A stretch of DNA of 64,000 nucleotides, from positions 2,880,001 through 2,944,000 of the forward strand of contig CM000153.2 of NCBI GenBank assembly GCA_000004695.1, written 5' to 3'. The stretch is from Dictyostelium discoideum. Taxonomy: Eukaryota. Shown here in pieces: positions 6,444 through 60,437 of this stretch. The notes beneath the pieces are model-generated. The model was not told the origin of the DNA. It saw nothing but the letters and a program-made list of their open reading frames with translations, and did not search any database. A program made the position numbers and the translations under genes. The number at the start of each line of letters is the position of its first letter. The first letter of the stretch is position 1.

Positions 6444-6738
6444 CTCTTTACTTTTTTTTTATTTTTAAATATTTATTTATATGAGTGTGAAAATAGTAAA
6501 TTTCTTTTGCCAATGTTTTTTTTATTTAAAAAAAAAAAAAAAAAAAAAAACTAATGAAAACATGAAAAAATTGAAAAAAAAAAAAAATTTGTCAAAGGAC
6601 CATCAAATATTTGTCCCGTGAAAAATGTTTAGCTATTATAATACAACTTTTTTTTTTTTTTTACAGTTTGTAATTAATTTTTTAATTGATTAAGAAATTA
6701 GACAATAGATGAATAATTATCATTATAATAAATAGATT

Positions 6739-7924: not shown

Positions 7925-8297
7925 CTTTTATTTTTATCTTTTATTATTTTTATCTTTTTTTTTTTTTTTTTTTTTTTTTGTTTTTTTTTAATTAAATGAT
8001 AATGTTTTAATAAAAATAAAAAATAAAAATAAAAAAAAAAGGAGAAAAAAAAAAATGAAAAAAATTAATATTAGGGGACTTAATTTTTTGGGTTAGTGAC
8101 TCATTTATATTGTTTTGATGAGATGACGAATCTTTTTTTTTATTTTTTTTTATTTTATTTTTAATTTTATTTTTAAACTCGGAAACCCTTTTATGGAAAA
8201 TGTAAGAACAAAAAAAAAAAAAGACAAATGTTTTTGTTTGTTTTTTTTTACAATCAATTTTATTTATAGAAGGAGAAGGAAGGAAGCGTATTATTGA

Positions 8298-8391
<94 letters not shown>

Positions 8392-8445
8392 TTTATTATT
8401 TTTATTTAATTAATAGTTTATTAATTATTTGTTTATTTTTATTTA

Positions 8446-11115: not shown

Positions 11116-11158
<43 letters not shown>

Positions 11159-11264
11159 AAATAAAAAAAATAAGGAAGTAAATAAATAAATAAATATATA
11201 AAATAAAAATTTTTTAAAAAAAAAAAGAAAAATAAAAAACTAAAAATAAAAAATCTAATAATCT

Positions 11265-11400
11265 GTGCGACACAAGCAAAAAAAAACACCATTTCTTTTT
11301 TTTCTGACGAAAATGATCATCACAAAAGTTTTGAAATAAAAAATAAAATAATAAAAAATAATTTCCAAACCACCAGGACAAAAAAAAAAAAAAAAAGAAA
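11265..11400 (+). repeat. ~135-bp dispersed repeat, copy 1 (direct repeat with 14735..14885).
   Basis: Shared blocks GTG[C/T]GACA…AAAAAAACACC[A/G]TTT…CTGAC[G/A]AAAATGATCA…AATAATTT[C/T]CAAACCACCAGGACA. Confidence 0.45.
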
Positions 11401-11852
11401 AAACCATTAAAAATTCAGTCCAACCATTAATTAATTTTAAAAAAATTAATAGACATGTTCATTTGGTGATTTTCTTAATCAAAAAAAAAAACGATAAAAA
11501 AAAAAAGACGATAAAAAAAAAAGGTAAAAATAAAAAAAAAAAAAAAAAAAAAAAAAAATTCTAAACAGCCAAAGAATTACAACATCGCCATTATTCCAAA
11601 CATTAACAAAATTGATAGGTATTAGTTGAGAAGGTTCTAATTTATCACCGGAAAGATATTGGGGTGTTTTCTTAATTTTCTATTCAACTTTTACTCAAAA
11701 AATAAATAAAAAATAAAAAAAAGTTTATATGTTTAAAAACTAAAATTTTAATAAAATAATTTTTATTATTTATTTATTATTTTTTATTCCCTCCTTTTTT
11801 TTTAAAGTATTATTTAAATTGTTATTATTATTATTATTATTATTATTTAAAT

Positions 11853-14129: not shown

Positions 14130-14734
14130 CCATTGAACACTAGTTATTTCGTCATATTTAAATTTTCCCTATTTTAAATAATAATTTTTTTTTTTTTTTT
14201 TTTTTTTTATTATCATTAGTGTGTTGTAAATTATTTTTTTTAATTACTATTTAAAACAACTAATTAAAAGATTTAATAAATACCCCCATAAAAGATGAGG
14301 TTGAAATAAATGAAAAAATTAAAGATGAAATATATTTATTATTAAAAACTTTAAAAAATAATTGTTTTTCCATTTTAACAAAAATCTAAAAAAAAAAAAA
14401 ACCTATAATGATTTAAAAAAAAAATAAAAAAAAAATAAAAAAAAAAAATTCTTTTTTATTTCTAAAAAATTTTTTTTTTTTTTTTTTTTTTTTTATGATT
14501 GGTAACCTTGTTTTCTAGGTTGGAAAAACAATTGGTTTTAGCGTGTCATTTCAAAATATGCATTACCACGTTTTATAAAAATTTTCTAGTCACCAATAAA
14601 AAATTCCTATTACATTTTGAAAAAACACGATAAAACCAATTGTTTTCTCAAACTAGAAAACTTGTTGTTGTTCATCTAATTTGAAAAAAAAAAAAAAATA
14701 AAACTAAAAATAAAACTAAAATAAAAAATCAAAT

Positions 14735-23902: not shown

Positions 23903-24230
23903 ATTGTTTTATTTTTTATTTTTTTATTTCAAATGAAATAGTGATATTAATTTTTAAAAAACCATAAATAGAAATTAAATAAGAATAAATTTTTTAAAAA
24001 AAAAAAATAATAAAATAAAAAAACCACACAAAAGTGTTTAATTAATGAAATGAAAGTAAAATGTTAAAAAAAATGAATAAATAAAAAAAAAAAAAAATAA
24101 AAAAGGGGTTTGTCAAAGGTCGAAAACTATCATTCAATTAAAAACTTATTTTTATTTTCATCTTTTTTTTTTTTTTATTTTTTTTTTATTTTTTTTTTTT
24201 TTTTTTTTTCGTTCGTTTTTTCATTTTTAA

Positions 24231-24238
24231 TCCCATAA
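24231..24238 (+). promoter_or_regulatory. DUSE (Dictyostelium upstream sequence element, TCCCATAA) ~55–60 nt upstream of U3 copy A.
   Basis: Exact match to the [A/T]CCCA[C/T]AA consensus at the expected spacing upstream of the U3 start. Confidence 0.6.
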
Positions 24239-24290
24239 TTTATATATTATTAATGGTTAAAATAAAAGAAATGTTTTATTGAAATTTAAA

Positions 24291-24505
24291 AGTTATGACC
24301 AAACTCTTAGGATCATTTCTAGAGTATCGTCTATTAAAATTATTCATCAATAATTTTTCCTCTTTCACAGCTAGGATGATGATATACACTCACTACACGA
24401 AAGCGTGAAACCGTTATTATCGAATGATTCATTTATTCTTTATTAACATTGATGACCGTCTAATTCAGGGATGAATTGGTTGTGTGGTGGGATTCGTACT
24501 GGCTC
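24291..24505 (+). ncRNA. U3: U3 small nucleolar RNA (box C/D), copy A.
   Basis: 5' region …CTTAGGATCATTTCTAGAGTATCG is the U3 box A/A' (compare the human GGATCATTTCTATAGT). Also present: box C' GGATGATGA, box B-like AGCGTGAAACCG, box C TTGATGACC, and a 3' end followed by a T-run. Same 215-nt sequence in 4 copies. Confidence 0.75.
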
Positions 24506-24788
24506 TTTTTTAATTTAATTAATGAAAAAAAACCAAAATAATTTAAGTTTTTTATTTAATATTGTACTAAATAAAAAATATTTTTTATTATTTGTTTAAA
24601 ATTAAAATTCTTTGTTTGATAATTAAGAATTAAAAAAAGAATAGTTTCTTAACATTTTAAAATTAAAATTCATAAATAAACTATTAACTATTAATTATTG
24701 TTTATTTCCTTTAATGGATAAACACTGATTTATCAATATTTAAAAAATAAATAAAATAAAATAAAACTATTAAAATTTTGACTAAATT

Positions 24789-34361: not shown

Positions 34362-34770
34362 TATATATAGATATCATTTGTAAATTAAAAATTATAATAT
34401 TAATATTAGTAATGAAACAATAAAAAATAAATGAAAATATAAAAATTTTTTTTTTTTTTTTTTCTTTTTTTTTTTTGTCTCATTATTAAAATAAAAAAAA
34501 AATTAAATTTTAAAAAAAAAAAAATCTTTTTGAACAAATAGTTTGTTTTAAACTTCTGAAGGAAAATCTTTATTTGATGTTTATGGTGAAAAAATTACGC
34601 ACTTAAGCCAAAATTAAAATAAAAAAAAATTAAAAAAAATAAAAAAAAATTAAAAAATAAAAATAAAATCTTTATTTGGTGTTTATGAAAAAAAAAATTA
34701 AAAAAAATAAAATTAAAATAGTAATAATAATTAAATTGTTTTATTATATATTAATTTTGAAATTATATGT

Positions 34771-34973
34771 TTCAATGTGTATTTGATGGGTTTTTTTATA
34801 TTTAATGATGGAATATAGGCTTGAGTGAATAGTATCAGACTCTTATTAGGGAAAAGTCAGATGTGGAAACTGCCTAGGTTTTTTCTCTGCAAACGAAATC
34901 TAAACTCACTAAAGATGGAATCCCTAATGAATCGGATTGAAATCCGAATGCAAGATCTTTTCATAACTTTTAA
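34771..34973 (+). repeat. ~200-bp GC-richer element, copy 1 of 2 near-identical direct copies (candidate ncRNA gene or small TE terminal repeat).
   Basis: Identical to 35388..35592 apart from a few indels. Contains GGGAAAAGTCAGATG (eukaryotic RNase P/MRP CR-I-like) and a terminal hairpin TCGGATT-GAA-ATCCGA followed by a T-tract. Confidence 0.4.
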
Positions 34974-35334
34974 AATTCAATTCAATTACACTTAAATTAT
35001 AGTTACATATAGTGGATATGTTATGGGAATAAAAAAAAAAAATGAAAATTTTTTTTTTTTATTTTTTTTTCGTTTTTTTTTTCGTTTTTTTTTTTTTCAA
35101 AATTAATAATAAATTAAGGGGGTCACATAGAAAATAAAAAAATAAAAAAGATGACAAACCCACCATCACACTGCATAAAATTACTTTTCACTTTAATGCT
35201 GAAATTATTACATCCAACCCTTATGATAGTGTAATAGTATTTTAAAGTTTGGAAAAACAGTGAAGGTTATGAATTTTATTTACAGTTTTTAAAATATTTT
35301 ATAATTTTTTTTTTTTTTTAAATTTAATAAAGAA

Positions 35335-35592
35335 ATATTGGCCGTAGTGAATAGTACCTGACTCTTATAAGAGAAAAACCATATGTTTTCAATGTGTATT
35401 TGATGGGTTTTTTTTTATATTTAATGATGGAATATAGGCTTGAGTGAATAGTATCAGACTCTTATTAGGGAAAAGTCAGATGTGGAAACTGCCTAGGTTT
35501 TTTCTCTGCAAACGAAATCTAAACTCACTAAAGATGGAATCCCTAATGAATCGGATTGAAATCCGAATGCAAGATCTTTTCATAACTTTAAA
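35335..35592 (+). repeat. Copy 2 of the ~200-bp element (35388..35592), preceded by a 50-bp partial third copy (35335..35385).
   Basis: See copy 1. The partial copy …GGCCGTAGTGAATAGTACCTGACTCTTATAAGAG matches the internal segment GGCTTGAGTGAATAGTATCAGACTCTTATTAGGG. Confidence 0.4.
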
Positions 35593-35676
35593 AAATAATT
35601 TCAACTTTTGCTAAACTAATGTTTTGTCCAAACACTTGTTATGGGTTTTACAAAACTTTTCATTTTTTCATTTTTC

Positions 35677-39192: not shown

Positions 39193-39292
39193 NNNNNNNN
39201 NNNNNNNNNNNNNNNNNNNNNNNNNNNNNNNNNNNNNNNNNNNNNNNNNNNNNNNNNNNNNNNNNNNNNNNNNNNNNNNNNNNNNNNNNNNN
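39193..39292. other. Assembly gap (100 N).
   Basis: Run of N characters. Confidence 1.
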
Positions 39293-40837: not shown

Positions 40838-41849
40838 AAATAAATAAATTAATTAAATAATCAATTAATTTATTTATTTATTTATTTAATAGTTATTTCT
40901 TAATTCCAACAAAACCAATTGACTCAACTTTTTGAATTTTTTTCAATCCAACGGCTAAAAAAAAAAAAAAAATTTAAAAAAAAATAAAAAATGTGTAAAA
41001 AAATTTAAAAAAAATAAAAAATGTGTAAAAAAATTTAAAAAAAAAAAAAAAAAGTGAAGGATAAAAAAAAAAAAAAAAAAAAAAAATTATATAAAATAAA
41101 ATCAATCCCTTTTTTGGAGGTTCCCGAATAGAATATTTTAGAATGTATAACATAAATAAATAAATAAAATAAAAATAAAATAAAATAAAAAATAAAATAA
41201 AATAAATAAAAAAAATTAAAAAGAAAATAGAAAAAAAAAAAAAAAAAATTAAAAAAATAAAAAAAACCAACTCGCCACATAAAAATTTCAAATTTTTTTT
41301 TTTTTTAAATTTTTTTTTTTATAAATTTTTTTTTTTTTTTTTTTACTCATAAAAATTTTTTGTTTGTTATTCAACTAAAAAAAAAAAAAAAAAAAAAAAA
41401 TAAAAAATAAAAAAAACTTTTTTTTAAATTAAAACTACGCGCGATCTATCTCCCCACACTTTTTTCATTAAACAAGTAATTAATTGGTTTAAACCAGGAG
41501 AAAGAACAAACAAAAGTTTATTTCACTCTATTTCAATTTATTTATATATATACATATTTTTTTTTTTTTTTTGTAAATTTTCATTCATTCATTCATCCAT
41601 TCATTCAAACAAATAATAATAAATAATATTATATATGTACTAAAAAAATAAAATAAAAATAAAACAAAAACAAAAACAAAAACAAAAAAGAATCAAATTA
41701 AAGCAAACACAATCAAATTTAGAAAACTAATTTCATTCGATTTGTTTGTTTTTCATTTTTTTTTTTAAAAATTTAATTTATAAAAAAAAAAAAATAAAAA
41801 AAAAGTTCCCACTTCCATCAATTTATTTTTAAAAAAAAAAATCAAAGCA

Positions 41850-42740
41850 ATGACACCACCTAATGTCCCCGATGTTGGTAAGATTTCAATTTAACTATTT
41901 TTACATATTTTTATTTTTTTTATTTTTCTCAAAAAGAAACTAACAACTTTTTTTTTTTTTTTTTTTTTTTTCTATCTCTTTCTGTAAACACAGAAATGGG
42001 TATTGATAGAGTTAATAATGAAGATGATTCATTAAATAATATTTATAATCCATCAAAAGATCCAAATTATATAAAGTTAGTAAATGTAAGCTATTATTAT
42101 TATTATTTTTTTTTATTTTTTTATCATATAGTTTTTTATTATTTTTTATAAAGTATGTTAACAACAACAATAATTAAAAATTAATATTATATCTAGGTTT
42201 TAACTGAACTTAAATCAAATGGAATTAGTGATTCTGATCCAACATTTACTTCAATCTTACAAATTACTAAACTATATTTAATGAATAAAACTAATAGTGG
42301 TATCAATAATAATGGTGTCAATAATAATAATGGTAATAACAATAGTAATAATGATAATATAGTTGAATTATTTAAAGCACAAGTTGAATCATATAAATAT
42401 ATATCTAGAAATTTACCAATACCAGTTGGAGTTTTACAAAAGATGTCACCAATTTTAGAGAATTCACCACATGTACCATCATTTAAAGAGGAATTATTAA
42501 ATTTGAAATATTATCCAAAGGGATTAATTAAATTGGATCAAAATAATAACCCTATCACTACAAACACAATGGCATATCAACAATTGAGTTGTAACCAAAG
42601 AATGATTCAACAACAAAAAGAGAGAATACAACAAGAACAACAACAAGCACAACAACAAGAGCAAATTAGAATTTTACTACAAGAGAAACAATTAAGACAA
42701 ACTGAAACTTTAAATAATACAAATAATAATAACAATAATA

Positions 42741-42829
<89 letters not shown>

Positions 42830-42847
42830 AGCGCAAATGGTAATAAT

Positions 42848-42880
<33 letters not shown>

Positions 42881-45800
42881 ACAAACACAAATGGTAATAA
42901 TAATAATAATAATAATAATGAAATTGAAACATTAACAAAAGAAGAAGAATTAGAAAAAGAAAAAGAAATACAAAGATTAAGAGATTTACAAAAACCAATA
43001 ATTTATAAGAGTTGTATACCAGCAAGTGTTGAAAATATTAAAGGTTTACCAGAGGCTATTCATTCTATAAATGAGAGAGAAATGAAAATTCAAGCAAAAG
43101 TGATAACACGTATTGATGAATTGAAGGAGATACCAACTCATTATTTACCAACTGATGTTAGAATTAGATCAGAGATTGAGAGTAAACAATTGAAACTATT
43201 GGAATTACAAAGAAAACTTCGTAATGATGTATCGTTAGAGATGGAGGATCAAGTATTGATACGTTCAATTCAAAACAATAGCAAGGGATATGATGACAAT
43301 GATTACAATCTCTACGTACGTTCAATTCCACGTTTAATCAATAGACCTATCGATCAAACTAGTTCAATCTACGATACTACTACAACTCAATTACCAGAGA
43401 GTATATTGGTGACAAATAAAAAGAAATTCTTGGAAGCAATTGCAATTCATGCAAGAGATTTCAAAGTGTTTCATAGTAACAATGAGAAATTTCTTCGTCA
43501 AAATGTTATCAAAGCAATACATCGTTATCATAAAGAGAAAGAAAAGAGAGAGATTGAACGTTTATCAAAGGAACGTATTCGTTTACTTAAAGCACGTGAT
43601 ACCGAAGGTTATAGAGATCTTTTAGCAAAAACAAAGAATGAACGTTTAGAAATGCTTTTAGGTGAAACTGATTCCCTCTTAAGTAGTATTCATCAATTAA
43701 TGGAAAAAGAACAAACTGAAAAAAGAGCACGTGAATTAGAAGAAGAATTAAAACAAAATGAAGAACAATTAAATGATCATAATGGTACAAATACTAATAA
43801 CAACAATACCACCACCACTACCACCACTACTTCTACTACAACATCAACATCATTATCAAATGAAGGTCAACCAATTGCAAATATAACTTCACCACTCCAA
43901 TCAACTACAACTATTTTAGCAAAGAAATCAAATAATTTAGTGATTGAACAACCAGATCTTATGACTGGTGGTAAATTAAAAGAATATCAAGTAACTGGTT
44001 TAGAATGGTTAATTTCATTGTATACACGTAATTTAAATGGTATTTTAGCCGATGAAATGGGTCTTGGTAAAACTGTACAAACCATTGCATTCATTTCATT
44101 CCTTTATGAACGTATGAATGTTAGAGAGCCATTCTTGGTAGTAGCACCATTGTCAACCATTAGTAATTGGGTATCAGAGTTTGCACGTTGGTCACCAAAA
44201 CTTCATGTGATCGTTTACAAGGGTAAACAAGATGAGAGAAGAGAGACAGCAAGAACCATACCAAGGAATGCATTTTGTGTAGTTATCACCTCTTTTGAAT
44301 ATATCATAAAGGATAGAAAAACATTGGGTAGGGTTCATTGGATCTATATTATCATTGATGAAGGTCATCGTATCAAAAATAAAAATAGTAAACTCTCTGT
44401 ACAATTACGTCAATATCATAGTAGAAATAGATTACTACTCACAGGTACACCATTACAAAATGATTTGGGTGAGTTGTGGGCATTGTTAAACTTTTTGTTA
44501 CCAACTATTTTCAATTCAGCTGATACTTTCCAAAATTGGTTCAATGCACCATTCCAAGCAAAGGGTAAGAATTTAATCAATGTCAACGAAGAGGAGTCTT
44601 TGATCATTATCAATCGTCTCCATCAAGTTTTAAGATTTTTCTTATTACGTCGTTTGAAATCAGATGTAGAGAGCCAACTTCCAGACAAGAAGGAAAAAGT
44701 TATCAAATGTAATATGAGTGCACTTCAAATTGCAATGTATAGATCATTGGTAGAGTATGGTGTACTCCCAATCGATCCAGATTCAAAGGAGGGTAGAAGT
44801 GGAAGATTGAAAATGAAAGGTTTCAATAATATCGTTAAACAACTTCAAAAGATTTGCAATCATCCTTACCTCTTTAAAGATGAATGGGATATCAATGAGG
44901 ATCTCATTAGAACCAGTGGTAAATTCGATACTATGGACCAAATTCTAACGAAAATGCATGCCTCCAAACATCGTGTTCTCATTTTCACTCAAATGACAGA
45001 GGTTATCAATCTAATGGAGGAGTATTTCTCTTTGAAAGAATGGACTTTTCTTCGTTTGGATGGTTCAACTAAACCAGAGGAACGTGCTCATTTGGTTGTC
45101 GAATGGAATCGTCCTGATTCACCATTTTGGATTTTCGTACTCTCAACTCATGCCGGTGGTTTAGGTATGAATTTACAAACTGCCGATACTGTAATCATTT
45201 TCGATTCCGATTGGAATCCACAAATGGATCTTCAAGCTCAAGATAGATGTCATCGTATTGGTCAAACTAATTCTGTGTCGGTGTTTCGTTTAATCTCTGC
45301 CAACTCTATCGAAGAGAAAATTCTAGGTAGAGCCACCGATAAATTGGAGATCGATGCAAAGATTATTCAAGCCGGTATGTTTAACACTCATTCCAACGAT
45401 CAAGAAAGACGTGCAAAATTGGAACAATTCCTTCATGGTTTCCCCAATAATACTTTGGATGAAGTACCAGTGGATCTAAAGGAAATCAATAAATTGATTG
45501 CTCGTGATGACTTTGAATTCAAACAATTCCAAGAGATGGATAAAGAACGTTTGAAAGTGGATCAAGCAAATTCAAAGAAAACTAGACAACCAATTAAACC
45601 ACGTCTAATGATCGAAAAAGAATTACCTGAATGGGTTTTGGCAACTCCTGTCACCGATAAGGATGAAGATATCGCTGGTAAGAAACGTTCAACCGCCATT
45701 GCTTCTGCCAATAGTTTTGTTCATGATAATTTAACCGATAATCAATATGCTAGAATGATTGAAAAGAATATGACCTTTGAACAGTATAAAGCTCATTTAG

Positions 45801-46921
45801 AGGCAAAGAAATTAAAGAATGGCAAATCTAAAAAAGATGGTGAGAAAAGTAAAAAGAAAAAAGGTAAAAGTAGAGGTAGAAAGAATAAATCTGATGATGA
45901 AGACTCTTCCGATGATGAACTTGATGATGAAGGTATTTCATCTGATGATGATGATAATAATATTAATAATAATAATAATAATAATGATAATAATAATAAA
46001 AACAATAATAATAATGATGATGAAGAAACTGGTGCTATTCAAAAACAAATCGTTGAACGTCGTCGTGCTACCCCTCAACAACGTAAACAACAACGTCAAC
46101 AACAACAAGAAAAACAAAATCATGAAAATAATAGTGATAATGAAAATCAAGATGATATTATTCAAGTTGATGATCATCCAACTAATGGTATTGAAAATAG
46201 TAGTAACAATAATAATAATGATGATAATAATAGTAATGGTAATAGTAATCAACAACAACAACAACAACAATCCAATAATGGTGAAACACCAACACCTGCT
46301 AAAAAAGGTAGAGGTAGACCAAGATTATCAAATAATCCAACTCCAATTAAAAGAAAATTAGATGATCTTAAGGGTAAATCTGATGATAGTCCAAAACCAT
46401 CAAAGAAATCTTTAATGTCTGAAACAGAAACGAGTGACAACGAACAATCAATGGATTCTGGTGATAATAGTAATAATAATAATAATAATAATAACAGTAA
46501 TAATAATAATAATAACAATGAAAAAAATAATAATAGTAATGGTGAACCAAGTGAAAATGGTAGTCAAGAAAATGTAAATGGTAATGGTAATGTGGCTTCT
46601 ACTGCTGCAACAAATGGTACATCAGTTCATACTCCAGGTAAAAGAGGTAGAAAGAAGAAGATTAGACCAAACCCTGAAGATGAAGAAAAGGATAAAGATA
46701 AAGAAAATGAAAATGAAAATGAAAATGAAAAGGAAAAGGGAAATGAAAAAGATAAGGATCCAACTTCAACCACTTCTCCTACCACAACTACCACTTCAAC
46801 TTCAGCAGGCACTTCTTCTGGTTCATCATCATCAGTTTTAAATACCCCACTTTCTCCTGAATCTCCTTTTACAACTAGATCAGGTAGAACAAGATTTCCA
46901 AAAAATTCAACTGAACAATAA
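41850..46921 (+). CDS. SNF2-family chromatin-remodelling ATPase (SWI2/SNF2-Brahma-like). join(41850..41877,41994..42085,42197..46921), ~1614 aa.
   Basis: HSA-like region (FLEAIAIHARDFKVFH…). SNF2_N motifs LADEMGLGKTVQTIAF and DEGHRIKN. Helicase-C block LDGSTKPEERA…QAQDRCHRIGQ. SnAC-like segment. C-terminal AT-hooks (GRGRPR, KRGRKKK). Two small 5' exons join in frame (GTAAGA..AG, GTAAGC..AG). Confidence 0.85.
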
Positions 46922-47112
46922 AATAACACCAACCATGTTAATCCAAACAAAAAAACAAAAAAAAAAAAAATATTTAAAAAAAAAAAATAAAAAAAAAAAT
47001 TAAAAATATCTATTTTCGTTCATTTTTTTCATTTCATTCGTTCGTTTTTTCATTTTATTTCGTTTTTTTATTTTTATTTTTATTTTTTTTTATCAAATTT
47101 CATTTTACAATA

Positions 47113-47120
47113 TCCCATAA
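47113..47120 (+). promoter_or_regulatory. DUSE upstream of U3 copy B.
   Basis: TCCCATAA about 55 nt upstream of the U3 start. Confidence 0.6.
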
Positions 47121-47172
47121 TCTGCAATGAAAATTGGGGTAAAATAAAAGAAATGTTTTATTGAAATTTAAA

Positions 47173-47387
47173 AGTTATGACCAAACTCTTAGGATCATTT
47201 CTAGAGTATCGTCTATTAAAATTATTCATCAATAATTTTTCCTCTTTCACAGCTAGGATGATGATATACACTCACTACACGAAAGCGTGAAACCGTTATT
47301 ATCGAATGATTCATTTATTCTTTATTAATATTGATGACCGTCTAATTCAGGGATGAATTGGTTGTGTGGTGGGATTCGTACTGGCTC
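47173..47387 (+). ncRNA. U3: U3 snoRNA, copy B.
   Basis: Same 215-nt sequence as copy A. Confidence 0.75.
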
Positions 47388-47540
47388 TTTTTTTAATTAA
47401 TTTAACGAAAAAAAAAAAATAAAAATTAGATATTTGTTAATAATTTTTTATTTTTTTTTTTTTATTTTTATTTTTTTTTTTTTTAATTATTATATTTTTT
47501 CTATGATATTAACAATTAGTATAAATTAAAATTAAATAAA

Positions 47541-48150
47541 ATGGGTAATTTTTTTTTTTTAAACAACAAGAAAAGGAAATTTCAATTGTTGTAGTAAACA
47601 AAGAAAGAGAACTTGATGTTTTTTTGGTATGTTTATTTTATTTTTTTCTAAATTTTTTTTTTCATAGCACTATATCGAAACTAATTACCAATTTATTATA
47701 TGTATAATATAGAACGTCTATGCAAATTCAAGTGATCAATTAATTGGTGAGAAAATTTACAAGAAAGGCGATATTGAAGAATTGGTTGGTACCAATAGTG
47801 GTCATTATTCAATTATCATTGATAGCAATGGTGAATCCGATGACGACCAACATCCAGTTGGTATTGAAACCCATTTGGTAATAAAGAGACCAAACATTTC
47901 CAATGAAACTGGTTTTGGTAGTTTCGCACATAGGAACTATAATTCAGATAAATTAATTAAAACAGTAAAAGTTGGTAAAGCACTTTTATTACATACAAAA
48001 GAATATGTTGAGGCTGATAATTGTAACAAATTTTTCATTCTTGTTAAACATTTTAATGATTTATTTTATAAATTCATTCAAGAACAATGTAGTGGTGACA
48101 TTTACTGGGTAGAAAGAATAATTGCCATAACTATGCAAGATTTTGCTTAG
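47541..48150 (+). CDS. LRAT/H-RAS-like suppressor (NlpC/P60 superfamily) small protein, copy 1. Exon 2 is 47713..48150. Exon 1 (47541..47626) is frame-ambiguous.
   Basis: GHYSIIID…THLVIK (His box) and EADNCNKFF (NCEHF-like catalytic Cys motif). Donor ttg|GTATGT at 47627, acceptor atatAG at 47712. A 12-T homopolymer puts the exon-1 ATG out of frame by 2 relative to copy 2. That is either a sequencing error or a real lesion. Confidence 0.5.
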
Positions 48151-48528
48151 AATATTTGCATTTATCATGGCCTGATTCTGTTGTATAACCAACCGATGAC
48201 TATCCATTTTTATTGGATGTTTTAAAAATCCAAAAATGTCCATCGATTGCAACAAACCAATCATAAAAATTTCCCTAAAACATTTGAGAAAAAATAAAAA
48301 AAAAAAAAAAAAAAAAAATAATAATAATAATAAATTATATTCTCATAGTAATTAATTAAATTAAAAATTAATTTATAACATGATTTTTAATAAAATTAAT
48401 TTTCATATCTTTTTTGAATAAATTATAGAATTTTTTACAATTAATAAAAAAGGCCAAAAACAGATAATTGTTATTTTGTTTTATTTTATATTATTTTTTT
48501 TTTTTACTTTAATATATTAAAAACCTAT

Positions 48529-50101
48529 TTAGTTGAATTCTTTTCCAAATACTTTTTCAAAGTAAGATATTAATGTATAATTATTAGATGATGATTGGTT
48601 TTTTAAAGTTTCTTCAAATATTTCTAGATTTGGTTTAAAATTTAAGTCTTTAATTATAAAATCAATAAAGTCAATATATCCATATTGAAAAGAAGTCTCG
48701 AATATACCTTCAAAACCGATTGTTGCAATTTCATCTTTATATTTTTTATAAATATTAAGGTTTCCATAAATTCGAGCAGCATTTTTAGTTACTGCAATTA
48801 ATTCAAAGAAAGGTCCATATGGTCGTGTTTGTTCATTTAGTTGTTGTTGTCTTGAATTTATTAAAAATTCAATTGTTGATATATCATTTTTTTTAACGAT
48901 TTCCAAAACTGTTTTAATCTCAACAAAATTTCCATATCTATTATATCCATTGTTTGAAAATATCATTTCTTTCATTTTATCAAATTGACCATTTAAATAA
49001 TAGCAAGTAAATAATCCTTCATTATCATCAGTTTTAATTTTATGGGGATAATTTTTTAAAATATGATATTTGTTTTCAACTTCTAGATAAATATATCTTA
49101 AACTTTCAATTTTACTATTTTCAATACAATCTATTAGTTTGTTTAAAGTTGATACTTGAATTTCTTTATATGGTTTTCTTGTAAATTGTTGGTCAATATA
49201 TTTTTTTAAATTAATATTATTTTTGAAATCATTAAAATTTTCAATCATAAAATTAATATCACATTTTAAAATTGAAATATTTTTTTGACTAGATAATAAT
49301 GTATATTGTTGATAATAATTATTTTTAAAATGGTTTGCAATTTTATAATTTGAAATTATTTGACCAAAACAAAATGATTTTTCAATTACAGTTGGTCCAG
49401 AAAGTTTTTCAAGTTGATTTTTAATATAATCAAACATCAATGGTGATTTAATTGATTCAATCACTGATGTATTACAAATTGGCGGAAGACTCTCAAATGC
49501 CATCTTAACCAACTCGATATCATCTGATAATATGACCTCTTTAATTAAGTCGATTTTAATATTTGGAATTGATTCAGAATAAATAGCTGGAATTTGTTCG
49601 ATTGCATCTTTATAATATTGATGAATTAATTCTTTTTGATTTTTAACAAAACGAAATTTACTATCTGAAAATTTACCAGTTTGTACTTCTTGAAATGGAT
49701 GTTTGTATTCAATTCTACCAAAAGAAGAAAATTTTTCAGGATAAAATATACCAAACATATTTGGATGAAGACATGAACTAGGTTGTGATTTTAAATCTTC
49801 ATTTGATATCATTTTGCTATTGTATTTAAATTTATGAAATAAAAAATTTTCAATTATACTTTCTTTTTTAAAAATGTGTATTATTGCCATTTCATAAATT
49901 GATTTAACTCTTTCATCATTTGGGTTGAATTCACCAATTGTTGTTGATAACTCTTGTTTTGTAAATGATTTTGAAATTTCATTTAGTTCATTTTGATTTT
50001 TAAAACTTTTAAAACTTTTAATTTCATTTATATATTTTATTACTTGGTTTTGATTATTTTTCATTTGATCATTCTTTGAAGGTAATATAAATGGATTGTT
50101 A

Positions 50102-50172
<71 letters not shown>

Positions 50173-50194
50173 TTTATTATCATTATTTTTATTA

Positions 50195-50273
<79 letters not shown>

Positions 50274-51348
50274 CATTATTATTATTATTTTTATTACTAC
50301 TATTGTTGTCGTCATTCAAAATTGACTTTAATTTTGGTTTATATGAATCACTAAAACAATTTAAATTATTTAACCTTAAAATTGTTTTACATAAATCTAT
50401 AATTGAAGATAAAGGATAAGAGAATGCATAAAGTTGAATACAAAGTTTTGTATTTTTTGAATTTAATGATTCATTTGGTGTTTCGTTGATAAATTGTGGT
50501 ATTTTAATCTTTTCAATTAAAAATTCAATCTTTTCATTAAAGTTATTATTATCTTTAGTGAAATAAATATTTTCAGGTGAAAATACAGTTTCAAACCATA
50601 TACTATTTAATTGCGATTCTGTAATATCATCATTTGATTTAAATAATTGATTGAAAATATATTGTGCAACTTTTAATGACCCAATTGCAATAGCATTTTT
50701 AAAAAAGTTAAATGATAATTTTTTACCATTTGAATAATAATAATATTCATTAATTACTTTCATCGATGCAACATTATCATAAACCAATGATAAATATTTA
50801 ATTTCTCTTAATGATTTTAATTTTTTATTTTTAATACCATCATCATTAATTTCTGTTGACAATGGTGGCAATTGAAAATATAATTTATAATTTTTAAATA
50901 AATTTTTAAAAAATTCTTCATCATCTTTGAAAACATTGAAAATTGATGATTTATAATAAACTCTTATTTTTTTAAATTTTTTAGCATCTAATTTATCTCT
51001 TGATAAATTTATAGGTAAATAAGTTTTATTTAAATCACCTCTCGAGTTTGAATCGGTTTGCTGATCATCTTCTGGTGAATTACTACTGAATATTAATTGT
51101 TCACCTCTGATAACTTTACATTTTAATAATTCTGTATAACCATTTTTTATCATCCATCCTACTCTAACAATTTCTTCATATCTATAAATCCCATTTCTAA
51201 ATTCTGATTTTAAACTTGTGAATATTAAATTTTTTATATATTTATTTCTAAAAACAGAAAAAAATAATTTTTCAATGTCATAATTATTATTATGATTATT
51301 ATTATTTTCAATCTTTAATTTTTTTTTATAACGAAATGGATCATCCAT
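48529..51348 (-). CDS. Hypothetical 939-aa protein, lineage-specific family, paralog A of the tandem pair.
   Basis: Intact ORF, ~85% identical to 53402..56143. (AAT)n-encoded poly-N insert present only in this copy. Confidence 0.6.
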
Positions 51349-51584
51349 TTATGATTTTGATTTCAAAAAAAAAAAAACAAAATTTTTTTTTTTTTTTTAA
51401 GATTTTTTTTTTTTTTTGATCAATAAAAAATAAATAATAAAGAAAAAAAAATCTTTTTAAAAAATAAAAAAAAAATGTAATAAAAACACAAAAAGAAAAT
51501 TTAATTTTAAACTTTTTTCTAAAAATTTTATACTTTTTTCTTTTTATTTTTTCGTTATTTTTTAATTTTTTTTTTAATTTTTAA

Positions 51585-51592
51585 TCCCATAA
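51585..51592 (+). promoter_or_regulatory. DUSE upstream of U3 copy C.
   Basis: TCCCATAA. Confidence 0.6.
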
Positions 51593-51643
51593 TTGTATTA
51601 ATTAATTGATATAAATAAAAGAAATGATTTATTGAAATTTAAA

Positions 51644-51858
51644 AGTTATGACCAAACTCTTAGGATCATTTCTAGAGTATCGTCTATTAAAATTATTCAT
51701 CAATAATTTTTCCTCTTTCACAGCTAGGATGATGATACACACTCACTACACGAAAGCGTGAAACCGTTATTATCGAATGATTCATTTATTCTTTATTAAT
51801 ATTGATGACCGTCTAATTCAGGGATGAATTGGTTGTGTGGTGGGATTCGTACTGGCTC
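51644..51858 (+). ncRNA. U3: U3 snoRNA, copy C.
   Basis: Same sequence as the other copies. Confidence 0.75.
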
Positions 51859-52276
51859 TTTTTTTAATTAATTTAATGAAACAAAAATAATTTTATAAAA
51901 AAATTGGTAAATCAGATTTCATCCAATAAAGGCAATAATTAATGATGTTATTTTATTAATAAAAATTATTATTTTCATTTTTTTTTTTTAAATTTTAAAT
52001 TAAATATAATAAAAAAAAACTAATTAATTTTTGATGATATTTCTTGATTTTTTTTTTATTTTGTGAAAATAAAATTAAAGGAAGTAAAAAAATAAATAAT
52101 TAAAAAAAAAAAAAAAATTTTTATATATTTTATTTTATTATTTTGACACATTTATATACACTTTTTTTTTTTTATAATATATTTTTTTTTTTTTTTAATA
52201 ATTTTTTTTTTTTTTTTTAGTTATTTTTTTTTTTTTTTCTGATGTTAATAATTAGTAAAAATTAAAATTAAATAAA

Positions 52277-52920
52277 ATGGGTAATTATTTTTTTAAACAA
52301 CAAGAAAAGGAAATGTCAATTGTTGTAGTAAACAAAGAAAGAGAACTTGATGTTTATTTGGTATGTTTATTTTATTTTTCAAAATTTTTTTTTTTTTCAC
52401 AGTACTATATTGAAACTAACTAATAATTTATTAATGTATAATACAGAACGTCTATGCAAATTCAAGTGATCAATTAATTGGTGAGAAAATTTACAAGAGA
52501 GGTGCTATCGAAGAATTAGTTGGTACAAATAGTGGTCATTATTCAATTGTCATTGATAGAAATGGTGAGTAGGATGACGACCAACATCCAGTTGGTATTG
52601 AAATCCATTTGGTAATGAAGAGACCATACATTTCCAATGAAACTGGTTTTGGTAGCGCCCCAAGAAACTATATTTCAGATAAATTAATTAAAACAGTAAA
52701 AGTTGGCAAAGCACTTTTATTACAAACAAAAGAATACGTCGAGGCTGATAATTTTAAAAAAGGTGTCATTCTTGGTCAACATTTCAATAATTTATTTTAT
52801 AAATTCATTCAAGAACAATGTAGTGGTGACATTTACTGGGGTAGAAAGAATAATTGCCATAACTATGCAAGATTTTGCTTAGAATATTTGCATTTATCAT
52901 GGCCTGATTCTGTTGTATAA
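52277..52920 (+). pseudogene. LRAT/NlpC-P60-like gene, copy 2, probably a pseudogene. Exon 1 is 52277..52360; exon 2 from 52447.
   Basis: Exon 1 is intact (MGNYFFKQQEKEMSIVVVNKERELDVYL). An in-frame TAG lies in exon 2 at ~52570 (GGTGAGTAG where copy 1 has GGTGAATCC). The catalytic Cys codon is lost (DNFKKG versus DNCNKF). The C-terminal frame differs from copy 1 by one G. Confidence 0.5.
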
Positions 52921-53401
52921 CCAACCGATGACTATCCATTTTTATTGGATGTTTTAAAAATCCAAAAATGTCCATCAATTGCAACAAACCAAACCTCTAA
53001 TCAAACAAATTAAAAAAACAATAAACTTTTATTCTTTATTATTATTTTTTTTTTTCATAAAATGATATCATTTATCATTAAATATAATAATATTATATTA
53101 TTTAATTTATTTTATTTATTTTAAAATCTTTTAAATGATGTTTAAGGTAGTTTTTCACACATTTTATATATGATTGTTTAAAGTTAAATAAAATTTTATT
53201 GGTATGGTGTTTGTATTTATTGTGTTTTTTTTTGCTTGTATGTGTGGAAACTCTGCCAACTAGGTTGGAACGAAAAATTTGAAATGGATCGAATTGAACA
53301 AGTTTTTTTAATATTCAAAAAAGGAATTAAAAAGTTTTGCCAGTATTAAAAAAGGCAAAAAACAGATAAATGACATTGTTATTTGTTTATTTAATACTAT
53401 T

Positions 53402-56143
53402 TTATTTTAATATTGAAAAACCTATTTGGTTGGGTTCTTTTCCAAATACTTTTTCAAAGTAAGATGTTAATGTATAATTATTAGATGATGATTGATTTTT
53501 TAAAGTTTCTTCAAATCTAGAAAGATTTGGTTCAAATTTTAAATCTTTAATTATAAAATCAATAATGTCAATATATCCATATTGAAAAGAAATATAGAAA
53601 TCACCTTCAAAATCCATTGTTTCAAAATAATCTTTAAGGTTTTTTAAAATATTAAGGTTTCCATAAATTCGAGCAGCATTTTTAAGTGCCCTAATTAATT
53701 CAATGAAAAGTTCTTTTGGTCTTGTTTGTTGTGTTTGATCATTTTGTTGTTGTAGTTGTTGTCTTGAATTTATTAAAAATTCAATTGTTGATATATCATT
53801 TCTTTTAACGATTTCAAAAATTGTATAAATTTCAACAAATCTAACACATCCATTTTCTGAAAATATCATTTCTTTCATTTTATCAAATTGACCATTTAAA
53901 TAATAGCAAGTAAATAATCCTTCATTATCATCAGTTTTAATTTTATGAGGATAATTTTTTAAAACATGATAATGGCATTCAACTTTTGGACAAATATATC
54001 TTAAACTTTCAATTTTACTATTTTCAATACAATCTATTAATTTATTTAAAGTTGAAACTTGAATTTCTTCATTTGATTTTCTTGTAAATTGTTGACCAAT
54101 GTATGTATTTAAATTAATATTATTTTTGAAATCATTAAAATTTTCAATCATAAAATTAATATCACATTTTGAAATTGAAATATTTTCTTGACCAGAAAAT
54201 AATGAATATTGTTGATAATAATAATTTTTAAAATGGTTTGCAATTTTATAATTTGAAATGATTTGATCGAAACAAAGTGAATTTTCAGTTGGTTTAGAAA
54301 GTTTTTCAAGTTGATTTTTAATATAATCAAACATCAATGGTGATTTAATTGATTCAATCACTGATGTATTAAAATTTAGTGGATGAAGACTCTCAAATAC
54401 CATCTTAACCAACTCAATATCATCTGATAATATGACCTCTTTAATTAAGTCTATTTTAATATTACCAGAAAAGTGAGCTGGAATTTGTTCGATTGCATCT
54501 TTATAATATTGATGAATTAATTCTTTTTGATTTTTAACAAAACAAAATTTACTATCTGGAAATTTACCAATTTGTACTTTTTCAAATGGATTTTTATAAT
54601 CAATTTTAGCAAAAGAAGAAAATTTTTCAATTTGTATTTTTTCATGATTTTTATAATCACTACTAATAAAAGCAAAAGGTGAAGAAATTTTTTCAAGATA
54701 AAATATACCAAACATATTTGGATGAAGACATGAACTAGGTTGTGATTTTAAATCTTCATTTGATATCATTTTGCTATTGTATTTAAATTTATGAAATAAA
54801 AAATTTTCAATTATACTTTCTTTTTTAAAAATGTGTATTATTGCCATTTCATAAATTTTTTTAACTCTTTTATCATTTGACTTGAATTCACCGATTTTTG
54901 TTGATAACTCTTGTTCTGTAAATGATTTTGAAATTTTATTTAATTCATCTAGATTTTTAAAACTTTTAAAACTTTTAATTTCATTTATATATTTTATTAC
55001 TTGGTTTTGATTATTTTTCATTTGATCATTTTTTAAAGATAATGTAAATGGATTGTTATTTTTATTATTATTATTATTACTATTGTTGTCATTCAAAATT
55101 GATTCCAGTTTTGATTTATATGAATCATTATTTAAAATATTTAGTAGTAAAATTGTTTTACATAAACCTATTATTAAAGATAAAGGATAAGAGAATGCAT
55201 AAAGTTGAATACAAAGTTTTGTATTTTTTGAATTTAATGATTCATTTGGTGTTTCGTTGATAAATTGTGGTATTTTAATTTCTTCAATTAAAAATTCAAT
55301 CTTTTCATTAAAATTATTATTATCTTTAGTGAAATAAATATTTTCAGGTACAAATACGGTTTCAGACCATATACTATTTAATTGTGATTCTGTAATTTCA
55401 TCATTTGATTTAAATAATTGATTGAAAATATATTGTGCAACTTTTAATGACCCAATTGCAATAGCATTTTTAAAAAAGTTGAATGATAACTTTTTACCAT
55501 TTGAATAATAATAATATTCATTAATTACTTTAATTGATGCCACATTATCATAAACCAATGACAAATATTTAATTTCTCTTAATGATTTTAATTTTTTATT
55601 TTTAATACCATCATCGTCATCATTGTCATCATCATTAATTTCTTTTTCTTGATTTTTTTGATTTTGTTCTGGTAATTGAAAATATAATTTATAATTTTTA
55701 AATAAATTTTTAAAAAATTCTTCATCATCTTTGAAAACATTGAAAATTGATGATTTATAATAAACTCTTTTTTTTTTAAATTTTTTAACATCTAATTTAT
55801 CTCTTGATAAATTTATAGGTAAATAAGTGTTATCGAAATCACCTCTCAATTTTGAATCATAATAAGTTTGTGGACCATCTTCTGGTGAATTACTACTGAA
55901 TATTAATTGTTCACCTCTGATAACTTTACATTTTAATAATTCTGTATAACCATTTTTTATCATCCATCCCACTCTAACAATTTCTTCATATCTATAAATC
56001 CCATTTCTAAATTCTGATTTTAAACTTGTGAATATTAAATTTTTTATATATTTATTTCTAAAAACAGAAAAAAATAATTTTTCAATATTGTTATTATTAT
56101 TTTCAATTTTTAATTTTTTTTTATAACGAAATGGATCATCCAT
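53402..56143 (-). CDS. Hypothetical 913-aa protein, paralog B of the tandem pair.
   Basis: Intact ORF, collinear with 48529..51348. Confidence 0.6.
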   Translation of the reverse strand: MDDPFRYKKKLKIENNNNNIEKLFFSVFRNKYIKNLIFTSLKSEFRNGIYRYEEIVRVGWMIKNGYTELLKCKVIRGEQLIFSSNSPEDGPQTYYDSKLRGDFDNTYLPINLSRDKLDVKKFKKKRVYYKSSIFNVFKDDEEFFKNLFKNYKLYFQLPEQNQKNQEKEINDDDNDDDDGIKNKKLKSLREIKYLSLVYDNVASIKVINEYYYYSNGKKLSFNFFKNAIAIGSLKVAQYIFNQLFKSNDEITESQLNSIWSETVFVPENIYFTKDNNNFNEKIEFLIEEIKIPQFINETPNESLNSKNTKLCIQLYAFSYPLSLIIGLCKTILLLNILNNDSYKSKLESILNDNNSNNNNNKNNNPFTLSLKNDQMKNNQNQVIKYINEIKSFKSFKNLDELNKISKSFTEQELSTKIGEFKSNDKRVKKIYEMAIIHIFKKESIIENFLFHKFKYNSKMISNEDLKSQPSSCLHPNMFGIFYLEKISSPFAFISSDYKNHEKIQIEKFSSFAKIDYKNPFEKVQIGKFPDSKFCFVKNQKELIHQYYKDAIEQIPAHFSGNIKIDLIKEVILSDDIELVKMVFESLHPLNFNTSVIESIKSPLMFDYIKNQLEKLSKPTENSLCFDQIISNYKIANHFKNYYYQQYSLFSGQENISISKCDINFMIENFNDFKNNINLNTYIGQQFTRKSNEEIQVSTLNKLIDCIENSKIESLRYICPKVECHYHVLKNYPHKIKTDDNEGLFTCYYLNGQFDKMKEMIFSENGCVRFVEIYTIFEIVKRNDISTIEFLINSRQQLQQQNDQTQQTRPKELFIELIRALKNAARIYGNLNILKNLKDYFETMDFEGDFYISFQYGYIDIIDFIIKDLKFEPNLSRFEETLKNQSSSNNYTLTSYFEKVFGKEPNQIGFSILK

Positions 56144-56363
56144 TTATGATTTATTAATAATTTAAAAAAAAAAAAAAAAAAAACAATAAAAAAAAAAAAC
56201 TTTTTTAATAAAAAAAACTTAATTTAATAAAGAAAAAAAAAAATAAAGAAATAATAAAGAAAAAAAACCCTTAATTTGAAAAAAAAAAAAATTTTAAAAA
56301 AAAAAAAAAAAAAATGGAGGGAAAAAAATTAGGTTTTCATTTTTTTTTTTTTTTTTTTTTTAA

Positions 56364-56371
56364 TCCCATAA
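56364..56371 (+). promoter_or_regulatory. DUSE upstream of U3 copy D.
   Basis: TCCCATAA. Confidence 0.6.
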
Positions 56372-56422
56372 TTTCTTTAATTAATTTATATAAATAAAAC
56401 AAATGTTTTATTGAAATTTAAA

Positions 56423-56637
56423 AGTTATGACCAAACTCTTAGGATCATTTCTAGAGTATCGTCTATTAAAATTATTCATCAATAATTTTTCCTCTTTCAC
56501 AGCTAGGATGATGATACACACTCACTACACGAAAGCGTGAAACCGTTATTATCGAATGATTCATTTATTCTTTATTAACATTGATGACCGTCTAATTCAG
56601 GGATGAATTGGTTGTGTGGTGGGATTCGTACTGGCTC
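56423..56637 (+). ncRNA. U3: U3 snoRNA, copy D.
   Basis: Same sequence as the other copies. Confidence 0.75.
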
Positions 56638-57305
56638 TTTTTTTAATTAATTTAATGAAAAAAAAAATGAATTTAAAATTCTTTAACCAATAAACCAGAT
56701 TTTATTCTTTTAAGGCAATAAAAATTTAATTATTTTTTTAAATGGTTCCTGATTAATACATATTAAAAAAAAAAAAAAAAAAAAAAAAATTATAATTATT
56801 ATATCATATAAATAATTTTTTTTTTTTTTTTTTTTTTTAATTTAAATAATTTCAATTATCATGATATTTAATTTTAAATTTTTTTTTTTTATTATTTTAT
56901 TTTTTTACTTCCATTAATTTTAATTTCAACAAAACAAAGCAAAACCAAAAATAGACGAAAAGAAATCACACAAATTTGTGTTTATAAAAAAAAAAAATAA
57001 AAAAAAAAAAATCTTTTTTATTTTTATTTTTTATTTTTTAATTTTTTTTAAAAAAAAATTTTAAATTTTTCAGACGAGCATTTTTGACTCATCTATTTTT
57101 TTTTTATTTTTTTTAAAATTTAATTTTTTTTTTTTTTTCCCTTTTCTTTTTTTTTTCTTTTATTAATTATTTATTGTGTTTCATTGTTTATAACAATACC
57201 AATATAAAATTTAAATAATAATAATAATAATAGTAATATAAATAAAATTAAAATAGAGAATAAGATTAGACTGTAAAATAAAACAATAAAAAAAAAGAAG
57301 AAATC

Positions 57306-58234
57306 ATGGGTAAAAGTAATACGATAGTATTATCCAATGAAAAGGATATACAATTAAGAATTCAACAATTAGAAGAAAGAAAAGAGAAAAGAAAGAATGT
57401 TAAACTTTTATTTAGTCCAATTAAAACAACAAAATACTTTTTATATATTTTAAAAGATACCCTTGTCAGTGGAATTCGATATTTTCAAACTAGACCATTC
57501 TTATTATTCTTTATTGCATTATTTGCATCATTAACTTTTATTGCAGTTTATGTACCAGGTGAACATCAAAAGGTAAATAAATAACAACAATAATAATAAT
57601 AATAATAGTAATGCTATATATATATGTATATTAAAATTTTAATATATTATTTTTTTTATTTTTTTTATCAAAAGTATATGGGTAAATATTCAGATTTAAT
57701 TTCAGATTGTATTTGGTGGGTTGGGTTAGGTGTATTATCATCAATTGGATTAGGAACAGGATTACATACATTTGTATTATATTTAGGACCACATATTGCC
57801 AAGGTAACATTGGCAGCAACCGAGTGGAATAGCGTAAATTTCAATGTTTATGGTGCCAATAGTTTTATTCAACCAGCAACAGCAATGATTGGTGGTGTTT
57901 CATTTTGGATGATTTTACAAAAAGTGCAATGGGCAGCACTATTTTGGGGTGCAGGTACAGCCATTGGTGAATTACCTCCATACTTTGTCGCTCGTACTGC
58001 AAGATTAAAAGGTTTGAAATTAGAACAAGAAAAGAAACTAAAAGAACAACAAGAAAAACCAATCGATGAAAAAGATCAACCAAAGAAAGGTCTTTTAGAA
58101 AGATTATCTGAAAAAGTTCCAGCTTTAATTGGTAATCTTGGTTTCTTTGGTATTTTAGCTTTTGCTTCTGTATGTTTTTTTTACTTTTTTTTTTTTTTTT
58201 CATCACCAATCATCCATTTTATATTAATATTAAT

Positions 58235-58270
<36 letters not shown>

Positions 58271-58857
58271 TATTGTTTTTATTTATTTAGATACCAAATC
58301 CATTATTTGATTTAGCAGGTATTACATGTGGTCACTTTTTAGTACCATTTTGGAAATTCTTTGGTGCAACATTCATTGGTAAAGCAGTTGTTAAAGCACA
58401 TATTCAAGCATGTTTTGTAATTTTAGCTTTTAATATGGAAACACTTACAATGGTTATTTCTTTTATTGAAGATAAAATTCCATTCCTTAAAAATAAAATT
58501 CAACCAATTTTAGAAAAAGAAAGACAAAAATTAAATTCAACTGTATCAGCAAATTCACCAGTAAGTTATTTTTTATTTTTTTATTTTTTTTTTTTGATCA
58601 CTTTAAAATCTAAAAAATATCTACAAATACTAATATATTAATTTTTTTTTTTTTTTTTTTTTTAAAAAAAAATATAGAAAAGTTTAGTAGGACTTGCTTG
58701 GGATTGTGTTTTATTTTTAATGATTTCTTATTTCTTAATGTCAATTGTTGACTCAAGTGTTCAAGAATATCTTATCGAAAAAGATAATAAAAAGATTGAA
58801 TTATTGAAATCAAAACTCGAAAAACAACAACCAAAAGAAACTAAAAAAACAAAATAA
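57306..58857 (+). CDS. vmp1: VMP1 (vacuole membrane protein 1, DedA/TMEM41 family). join(57306..57572,57675..58169,58291..58560,58678..58857), 403 aa.
   Basis: WGAGTAIGELPPYFVARTARLKG is the VMP1/DedA core. Multiple TM helices. Introns GTAAAT/GTATGT/GTAAGT..AG with all phases 0 and frames verified. Confidence 0.85.
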
Positions 58858-58886
58858 AGATTTTAAATAAATTATCATTCTTTTTA

Positions 58887-58925
<39 letters not shown>

Positions 58926-58980
58926 AATTTTAAATATCTATTTTTATTTTTTTACTTTTTTTTTTTATTACTATTTTTAC

Positions 58981-59013
<33 letters not shown>

Positions 59014-59039
59014 ATTATTATTTTTATATTACAAAAAAT

Positions 59040-60437
<1,398 letters not shown>

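Follow-up and report, generated by a model that had tools for sequence, protein, structure and literature searches.

Genes for U3 small nucleolar RNA (snoRNA) are known to occur in several near-identical copies in Dictyostelium, where D2/U3 has been called a 'dispersed multigene family' (Wise & Weiner 1980, as cited in PMC5499572), and linkages of U3 with U5 genes in Euglena have been ascribed to duplication of the locus (PMC2784804). A separate body of work describes non-allelic homologous recombination (NAHR) between flanking direct repeats, which leaves n units bracketed by n+1 repeats, a hybrid repeat in the middle, and unit boundaries inside the repeats. Here we describe a locus of D. discoideum AX4 that shares features with each of these systems. 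Within a 64-kb window (the whole stretch of DNA analysed, 21% G+C), three U3 genes alternate with two copies of a protein-gene pair in the order U3-[S-L]-U3-[S-L]-U3, each unit measuring 4.5–4.8 kb; S is a small, cysteine-hydrolase-like two-exon gene on the plus strand, and in both units it lies tail-to-tail with L, a large orphan gene on the minus strand. As in the multicopy U3 systems, the U3 genes of the window are independently promoted and have multiplied along with neighbouring DNA. Unlike in the known multicopy systems, three of the four U3 copies in the window are regularly arrayed, with two protein-coding genes separating successive copies, an arrangement of which no description was found in the literature searched. 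The likeness to NAHR extends to the layout, the hybrid middle repeat and the position of the boundaries; the repeats, however, are not the usual transposons, long terminal repeats or tRNA genes but U3 genes, about 0.3 kb long with their promoter, and the event is one that we infer. We favour, with a probability of roughly 0.7, the reading that the array arose by U3-mediated unequal crossing-over, that the event is old, and that it was followed by conversion and differential decay.

The tandem duplication itself is real and reproducible. When the region was compared with itself, 47064-51382 was collinear with 51534-56181 in six blastn blocks of 87–95% identity, so that similarity extends well outside the U3 genes and the doubled cassette of U3, small gene and large gene announced in an earlier note on this DNA was recovered. 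Globally aligned, units 1 and 2 are 89% identical over ungapped columns (83–100% per 100 nt), and a repeat finder placed the starts of a U3-containing 300-mer 4471 and 4779 nt apart. The left edge of unit homology falls about 36 nt upstream of the first U3 gene and the right edge about 40 nt downstream of the third, so three repeats bracket two units and the boundaries lie within the repeats, as NAHR would leave them. The middle U3 is a hybrid, most clearly at the same locus in two wild isolates recorded as 'D. discoideum' (L002 and L004), where it agrees with U3-3 at 10–11 sites between −51 and −36 and with U3-1 further on, at 27 and 33 sites between +237 and +322. Within AX4 the pattern is confined to two sites of the mature RNA, nt 90 matching U3-3 and nt 152 matching U3-1, with an upstream flank like that of U3-3. 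It is this combination, two units with three repeats of which the middle one is a hybrid and within which the boundaries fall, that favours unequal crossing-over between U3 genes. The ancestor would have carried two U3 genes in the same orientation flanking one S-L pair; a crossover within the U3 genes would have doubled the pair and created the hybrid middle U3, and gene conversion between the units, as well as lineage-specific decay, would have followed. The earlier note had regarded the co-duplication of U3 with two protein genes as unusual and U3 as a passenger, but U3 sits exactly at the unit boundaries and is more likely to have been the substrate of recombination.

Several observations weigh against unequal crossing-over from a single-unit ancestor. 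At the locus L001, from an isolate recorded as 'D. cf. discoideum', an extra partial S lies where U3-3 is found in AX4, and the array may instead have come from a longer one by deletion, since the predicted single-unit outgroup state U3-S-L-U3 was not observed. The AX4 flank comparison is noisy, with T-rich, low-complexity sequence far upstream, and the AX4 deletion of 270 bp downstream of U3-1 removes what would be its informative flank. Inside the mature U3 only two sites vary, and later conversion among the U3 genes could have created or erased the hybrid pattern.

Conversion between the S-L units themselves is indicated by their mosaic identity and by one tract in particular. The 3′ ends of the two S genes (48057-48256 and 52788-52988, plus strand) are 99% identical and include a shared derived TAA codon, the units elsewhere being 83–93% identical, and the stretch 48057-48256 is thus a probable gene-conversion tract.

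Table 1. Positions of the array components, the solitary U3 gene and the adjoining genes in the 64-kb window
Feature	Position	Strand	Remarks
U3-1	47177-47385	+	RF00012, 86.1 bits; A-type upstream flank, as at the 24.3-kb U3
U3-2 (middle, hybrid)	51648-51856	+	RF00012, 85.8 bits
U3-3	56427-56635	+	RF00012, 88.6 bits; closes the array
Fourth U3, solitary	24295-24503	+	RF00012; outside the array, without adjoining S or L gene
DUSE of U3-1	47113-47120	+	TCCCATAA; 64 nt upstream of the U3 5′ end
DUSE of U3-2	51585-51592	+	
DUSE of U3-3	56364-56371	+	
DUSE of solitary U3	24231-24238	+	
S1 (DDB_G0285207), pseudogene	47541-48266	+	exon 1 47541-47626, intron 47627-47712, exon 2 47713-48266
S2, pseudogene	52277-53013	+	exon 1 52277-52360, intron 52361-52446, exon 2 52447-53013
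U3-to-S spacer	51892-52166	+	in unit 2 and in modules at other loci; deleted in AX4 unit 1
L1	48529-51348	-	intact 939-aa ORF; also called as a 939-aa gene in GCA_054883475.1
L2 (DDB_G0285173)	53402-56143	-	intact 913-aa ORF, identical to AX4 DDB_G0285173
SNF2/HSA-domain helicase	42281-46921	+	upstream neighbour of the array
VMP1 and LRR/F-box-like gene	57624-60437		downstream neighbours of the array

The age of the array bears directly on the explanation put forward in the earlier note, namely a young segmental duplication of the U3-S-L cassette in which U3 was carried along passively, the U3 family growing by such duplications. The array lies between a SNF2-family helicase gene and VMP1, and the five syntenic assemblies all keep the order of the flanking genes. 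The flanks of L002 and L004 are 96.8–97.7% identical to AX4 and their layout is U3-S-L-U3-S-[0.7-kb L remnant]-U3-VMP1; L004 has an intact first S and a frameshifted second, L002 a rearranged first S and an intact second. L001, with a flank 92.5% identical to AX4, contains a 107-bp 3′ fragment of U3, one copy each of L, U3 and S (the S with a stop), a remnant of L and the partial S mentioned above, and L008, likewise from 'D. cf. discoideum', reads U3-S-Lremnant-U3fragment-S-remnant-U3 and has no L gene at all. Since the array or its remnants are present in AX4 and at these four loci, we place the two-unit array before the split of AX4, the other 'D. discoideum' isolates and 'D. cf. discoideum'; with flanks 3–7.5% diverged among the five assemblies, the duplication cannot well be called young. 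The lineages have lost different members of the array since then: in the wild isolates most of L2 is deleted and one intact S is kept, so that laboratory AX4 and wild isolates keep opposite members of the duplicated pairs.

Copying of U3 outside the array was the other half of that explanation, and here part of it stands. A module of U3 plus S, 1.3 kb long, recurs at three further loci. The first, L003, lies 170 kb from the array on the same chromosome-scale contig as L004 and matches unit 2 collinearly from −60 of U3 until shortly after the S stop; its U3 has a mutated DUSE (CTC for CCC) and is followed by a frameshifted S. L009 holds a 170-bp stretch in which 21 nt of upstream flank precede the first ~147 nt of U3, and again a frameshifted S follows. 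L007 ('D. cf. discoideum', 6001-12000) combines fragments of the SNF2 gene with one U3 and 3.5 tandem S copies, the latter with a period of about 1.76 kb and no U3 between them. The more distant S paralogues (L005, and L006 of D. firmibasis) have no U3 nearby. In the U3-linked layouts, then, U3 and S have moved jointly through duplication at the DNA level; defects are common among the dispersed U3 copies, and S can multiply without U3. Flank homology and the modules at L003, L007 and L009 thus bear out the copying of U3 by segmental duplication rather than retroposition, with homologous promoter and 3′ flank and without poly(A). They do not bear out a passive ride for U3. A growing family would gain nothing functional from a U3 with a mutated DUSE (L003), a 5′ fragment (L009) or 3′ fragments (L001 and L008), S was amplified in L007 without U3, and boundaries at U3, n+1 copies and a hybrid middle copy fit U3 as a recombination substrate. 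Together with the age of the array this makes a young duplication with U3 as mere passenger unlikely, although it shares with U3-mediated unequal crossing-over the premise of DNA-level copying. As an observation of its own, L003 carries on its minus strand (6577-6854) a signal recognition particle (SRP) RNA gene (RF01570, 312 bits), 2.7 kb upstream of the module and near eIF5A and a FEN1-like gene.

It could also be imagined that a mobile element carries the S-L pair or the entire unit as cargo, or that the U3 copies were retroposed, and the occurrence of S-family copies and U3 fragments at several loci would agree with either. We consider both very improbable. Pfam and NCBIfam scans found no transposase, reverse-transcriptase or integrase domain in S or L, and L occurs in one array per genome and at a single stable paralogue locus only. 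The SNF2-gene fragments in L007 mark plain segmental duplication. As to retroposition, the U3 copies have promoter flanks and a conserved 3′ flank, and a poly(A) tail is absent from every copy whose flanks were compared; the marks of a retroposed pseudogene are missing, in that promoter and 3′ flank are kept in all copies and the fragment copies include upstream DNA.

All four U3 genes in the window are full-length, on the plus strand, and match Rfam RF00012 over model positions 1–219 with 85.8–89.1 bits (gathering score 34 bits). Each has the Dictyostelium upstream sequence element (DUSE) TCCCATAA at 63–64 nt upstream, in agreement with the published motif [AT]CCCA[AT]AA and its distance of about −63 (PMC3188802). 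The Rfam matches and the elements confirm that three U3 genes with DUSE bracket the two units. Upstream of U3-1 there is homology to 24149-24541, and out to about −150 the flanks of U3-1 and of the solitary 24.3-kb U3 are of one type. A near-invariant block from −35 to −1 is common to all nine U3 copies compared by alignment, and the mature U3 copies of the AX4 array vary only at nt 90 (T/C) and nt 152 (C/T). Near-invariant and each with its own DUSE promoter, the three array genes are presumably all functional. Their mature RNA measures 209–210 nt, not the 215 nt first proposed; the Dictyostelium U3 entry V00190, as cited in PMC2784804, is of 210 nt (mature nt 62–271).

Which polymerase transcribes these genes is a further point on which the earlier description, 'pol III-type', went too far. 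Eight of the nine U3 copies lead straight into a run of six or seven T, for which the background chance at any one position is 1.7%; the copies are not independent of one another. Such a run is compatible with termination by RNA polymerase III (Pol III), and is suggestive only. The RNA of the original D2/U3 work is said to have borne a trimethylguanosine cap, which would argue for RNA polymerase II (Pol II). The DUSE does not decide the matter: PMC7919456, citing Hinas et al. 2006, states that it precedes non-coding RNA (ncRNA) genes of Pol II as well as of Pol III, and the Pol III label is not established. On the polymerase of Dictyostelium U3, our literature search found only the title of Wise & Weiner 1980 and general statements about the DUSE.

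In AX4 both S genes are broken, and both are pseudogenes. The lesions were called by comparing the two AX4 copies with ten relatives, the intact form in other Dictyostelium assemblies being 216 aa long. In S1 the T-run of exon 1 (47549-47560) is 2 nt longer, which is the homopolymer frame problem that had been suspected; a 1-nt deletion in the G-run at 48107-48109 puts the C-terminal NC motif out of frame; a derived TAA occupies 48186-48188, a Ser codon (TCA or TCT) in all relatives; and about 270 bp are deleted between U3-1 and the start codon (47421-47432 against 51892-52166). The corresponding 275 bp of unit 2 were also considered as an insertion into that unit, a possibility rejected on the presence of the stretch at other loci, which points to a deletion in unit 1. 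S2 has the in-frame TAG already seen in unit 2 (52570-52572) and, at 52918-52920, the same derived TAA as S1. These lesions are specific to AX4 and absent in every relative. The earlier note had the second S copy decaying asymmetrically, with loss of its catalytic Cys, but both small genes are dead and the motif had been mis-assigned: the Cys in ADNCNKFF, taken there for a catalytic NCxxF motif, falls in a variable column (Y/T/C/F) and was rejected for that role, and the Cys codon of the conserved NC motif is present in both units (48123-48125 and 52855-52857). For the AX4 reference this means that pieces of two pseudogenes are annotated as hypothetical proteins or fragments, namely DDB_G0285207 (165 aa) and the two fragments of S2, DDB_G0285171 (69 aa) and DDB_G0285195 (101 aa).

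Given such lesions, an artefact of assembly or sequencing has to be considered, either a falsely expanded repeat or base-calling errors in the small genes. Two of the lesions do lie within error-prone homopolymers (the T-run and the G-run), and the window holds an assembly gap. The TAG and the TAA, on the other hand, are substitutions, unlike homopolymer length errors. A second, chromosome-scale assembly of AX4 type (GCA_054883475.1, locus L010) agrees with the window at every base of 41067-56268, all lesions included, and the units differ by ~7–13% with many indels, which is not what a pile of duplicated reads would give. The same array is moreover seen in wild strains. We regard an artefact as extremely improbable and, because of the two assemblies and the divergence of roughly 10% between units, an AX4 genome with one unit only as unlikely. 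Outside the identical interval, L010 differs from the window in the lengths of homopolymers (A-runs) and in one substitution near 56269, and it reads through the gap of 100 N at 39193-39292 in the AX4 reference.

The L genes have fared differently from the S genes. L1 and L2 have intact open reading frames (ORFs), and their proteins share 86.6% identity across 864 aligned codons, as expected from the earlier description of two intact minus-strand genes of ~900 aa and ~85% identity; the dN/dS comparison proposed there gave 0.61 (dN 0.070, dS 0.116). All 14 indels between the L1 and L2 coding sequences (CDS) are multiples of 3, which is not so for most indels in the three non-coding spacers, and an open L frame survived in none of 2000 neutral simulations (92 or 184 random substitutions placed on the CDS). 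Because the indels keep the frame and none of the simulations stays open, these patterns indicate that both L genes are maintained as coding genes in AX4, selected for an open frame. L homologues were found only in Dictyostelium, and searches of Pfam, NCBIfam and PDB sequence profiles gave no relative. A paralogue, P0003/P0004, is 27–29% identical and occupies a stable locus that has neither U3 nor S. L1 carries at 50097-50300 an in-frame AAT/ATT expansion of 180 nt encoding a poly-Asn tract that is absent from L2 (55054-55082). Elsewhere in the window, a minus-strand gene at ~11853-14358 consists of a 758-aa ORF and an upstream exon, and its N-terminal ~35 aa are 47–59% identical to the N-terminus of L; the remainder is unrelated to L and has no Pfam match. 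This gene, at 11.8–14.4 kb, was considered as an L paralogue and rejected, as it shares the short N-terminal motif only.

The S protein had been labelled LRAT/NlpC-P60-like, which holds at the level of the superfamily. Within the NlpC/P60 superfamily, PPPDE/DeSI, CLN5 and LRAT/PLAAT make up the branch with a permuted papain fold, and the AlphaFold2 (AF2) model of S (predicted local distance difference test, pLDDT, 80.8) has a permuted papain fold similar to solved members of both LRAT/PLAAT and PPPDE/DeSI. The nearest solved structure is, however, of the PPPDE/DeSI type, with PLAAT/LRAT more distant, and S matches neither LRAT PF04970 nor PPPDE PF05903, with cut-offs of E≤1 (window proteins), E≤0.1 (29 relatives) and E≤10 (five members). 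A first model built from 11 close sequences reached a pLDDT of 52.8 and was discarded. Foldseek comparison of the S model with PDB and BFVD returned nothing at E≤0.001, and neither Pfam nor NCBIfam assigned S, L or their relatives to a family. Among PDB sequence profiles the best match of S was a picornavirus 2A protein, with the NC motif aligned (E=0.25, not significant). Conserved residues are H59 (GHYSI), H82 and N164-C165 (GRKNNCHNYARFC), the last two within a C-terminal NNCHN motif; at least 90% of 29 sequences keep H59 and N164, and C165 is invariant among close dictyostelid relatives and replaced by Ser in a few distant members. With LRAT/PLAAT, known for their H-box and NC motif, S shares a conserved His N-terminal to a conserved Asn-Cys; it is without their C-terminal hydrophobic membrane anchor, its C-terminus ...SPADDYPFLLDVLKIQKCPSIATNQTSNQTN containing no hydrophobic stretch of ~20 aa. 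The Met-Gly-Asn at the N-terminus is invariant, and a Met-Gly start of this kind suggests N-myristoylation. A Cys-His hydrolase or acyltransferase activity is predicted. Where names were given, the family was found only in dictyostelids; the distant intact AX4 paralogues DDB_G0292844 and DDB_G0292962 bear the UniRef name 'LRAT domain-containing protein'. An unannotated dictyostelid protein family is thereby placed in the permuted papain (PPPDE/LRAT) fold.

Among the U3-linked S copies dN/dS is 0.45–0.8 overall and ~1–3 in residues 86–146, and the three near-identical tandem copies of L007 differ by 11–14 non-synonymous against 2 synonymous changes. Because of this pattern and the frequent pseudogenisation, relaxed or diversifying selection on S is suggested, on counts too small for a claim; positive selection is not claimed, the counts behind an omega of at least 1 in the central patch being too small. 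At every locus examined for this subfamily, S lies behind a U3 gene or fragment. One could go further and see in U3, throughout the D. discoideum complex, a portable homology anchor that repeatedly mobilises and amplifies the adjacent S, in S a gene of fast turnover that may be under diversifying selection, and in the array a strain-variable, conflict-type locus rather than neutral debris, an extension that we think improbable. Unequal crossing-over between U3 genes is a known process, here well resolved in an annotated model genome, and the duplication is of an ordinary kind. What the locus offers is a concrete, datable case of snoRNA genes as substrates of unequal crossing-over, in a protist whose genome is compact and AT-rich; it is of use for annotation and for tracing how the locus evolved, and general concepts are unchanged.

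A minor observation concerns a different part of the window, where a 220-nt direct repeat (34765-34985 and 35381-35604) is 96.9% identical between its two copies and has a G+C content above that of its surroundings. Neither an Rfam match, even at E≤1, nor a tRNA was found in it, and the pair may represent unannotated ncRNA genes. A short related motif, GTGAATAGTAyCwGACTCTTAT, recurs at ~35340-35365.

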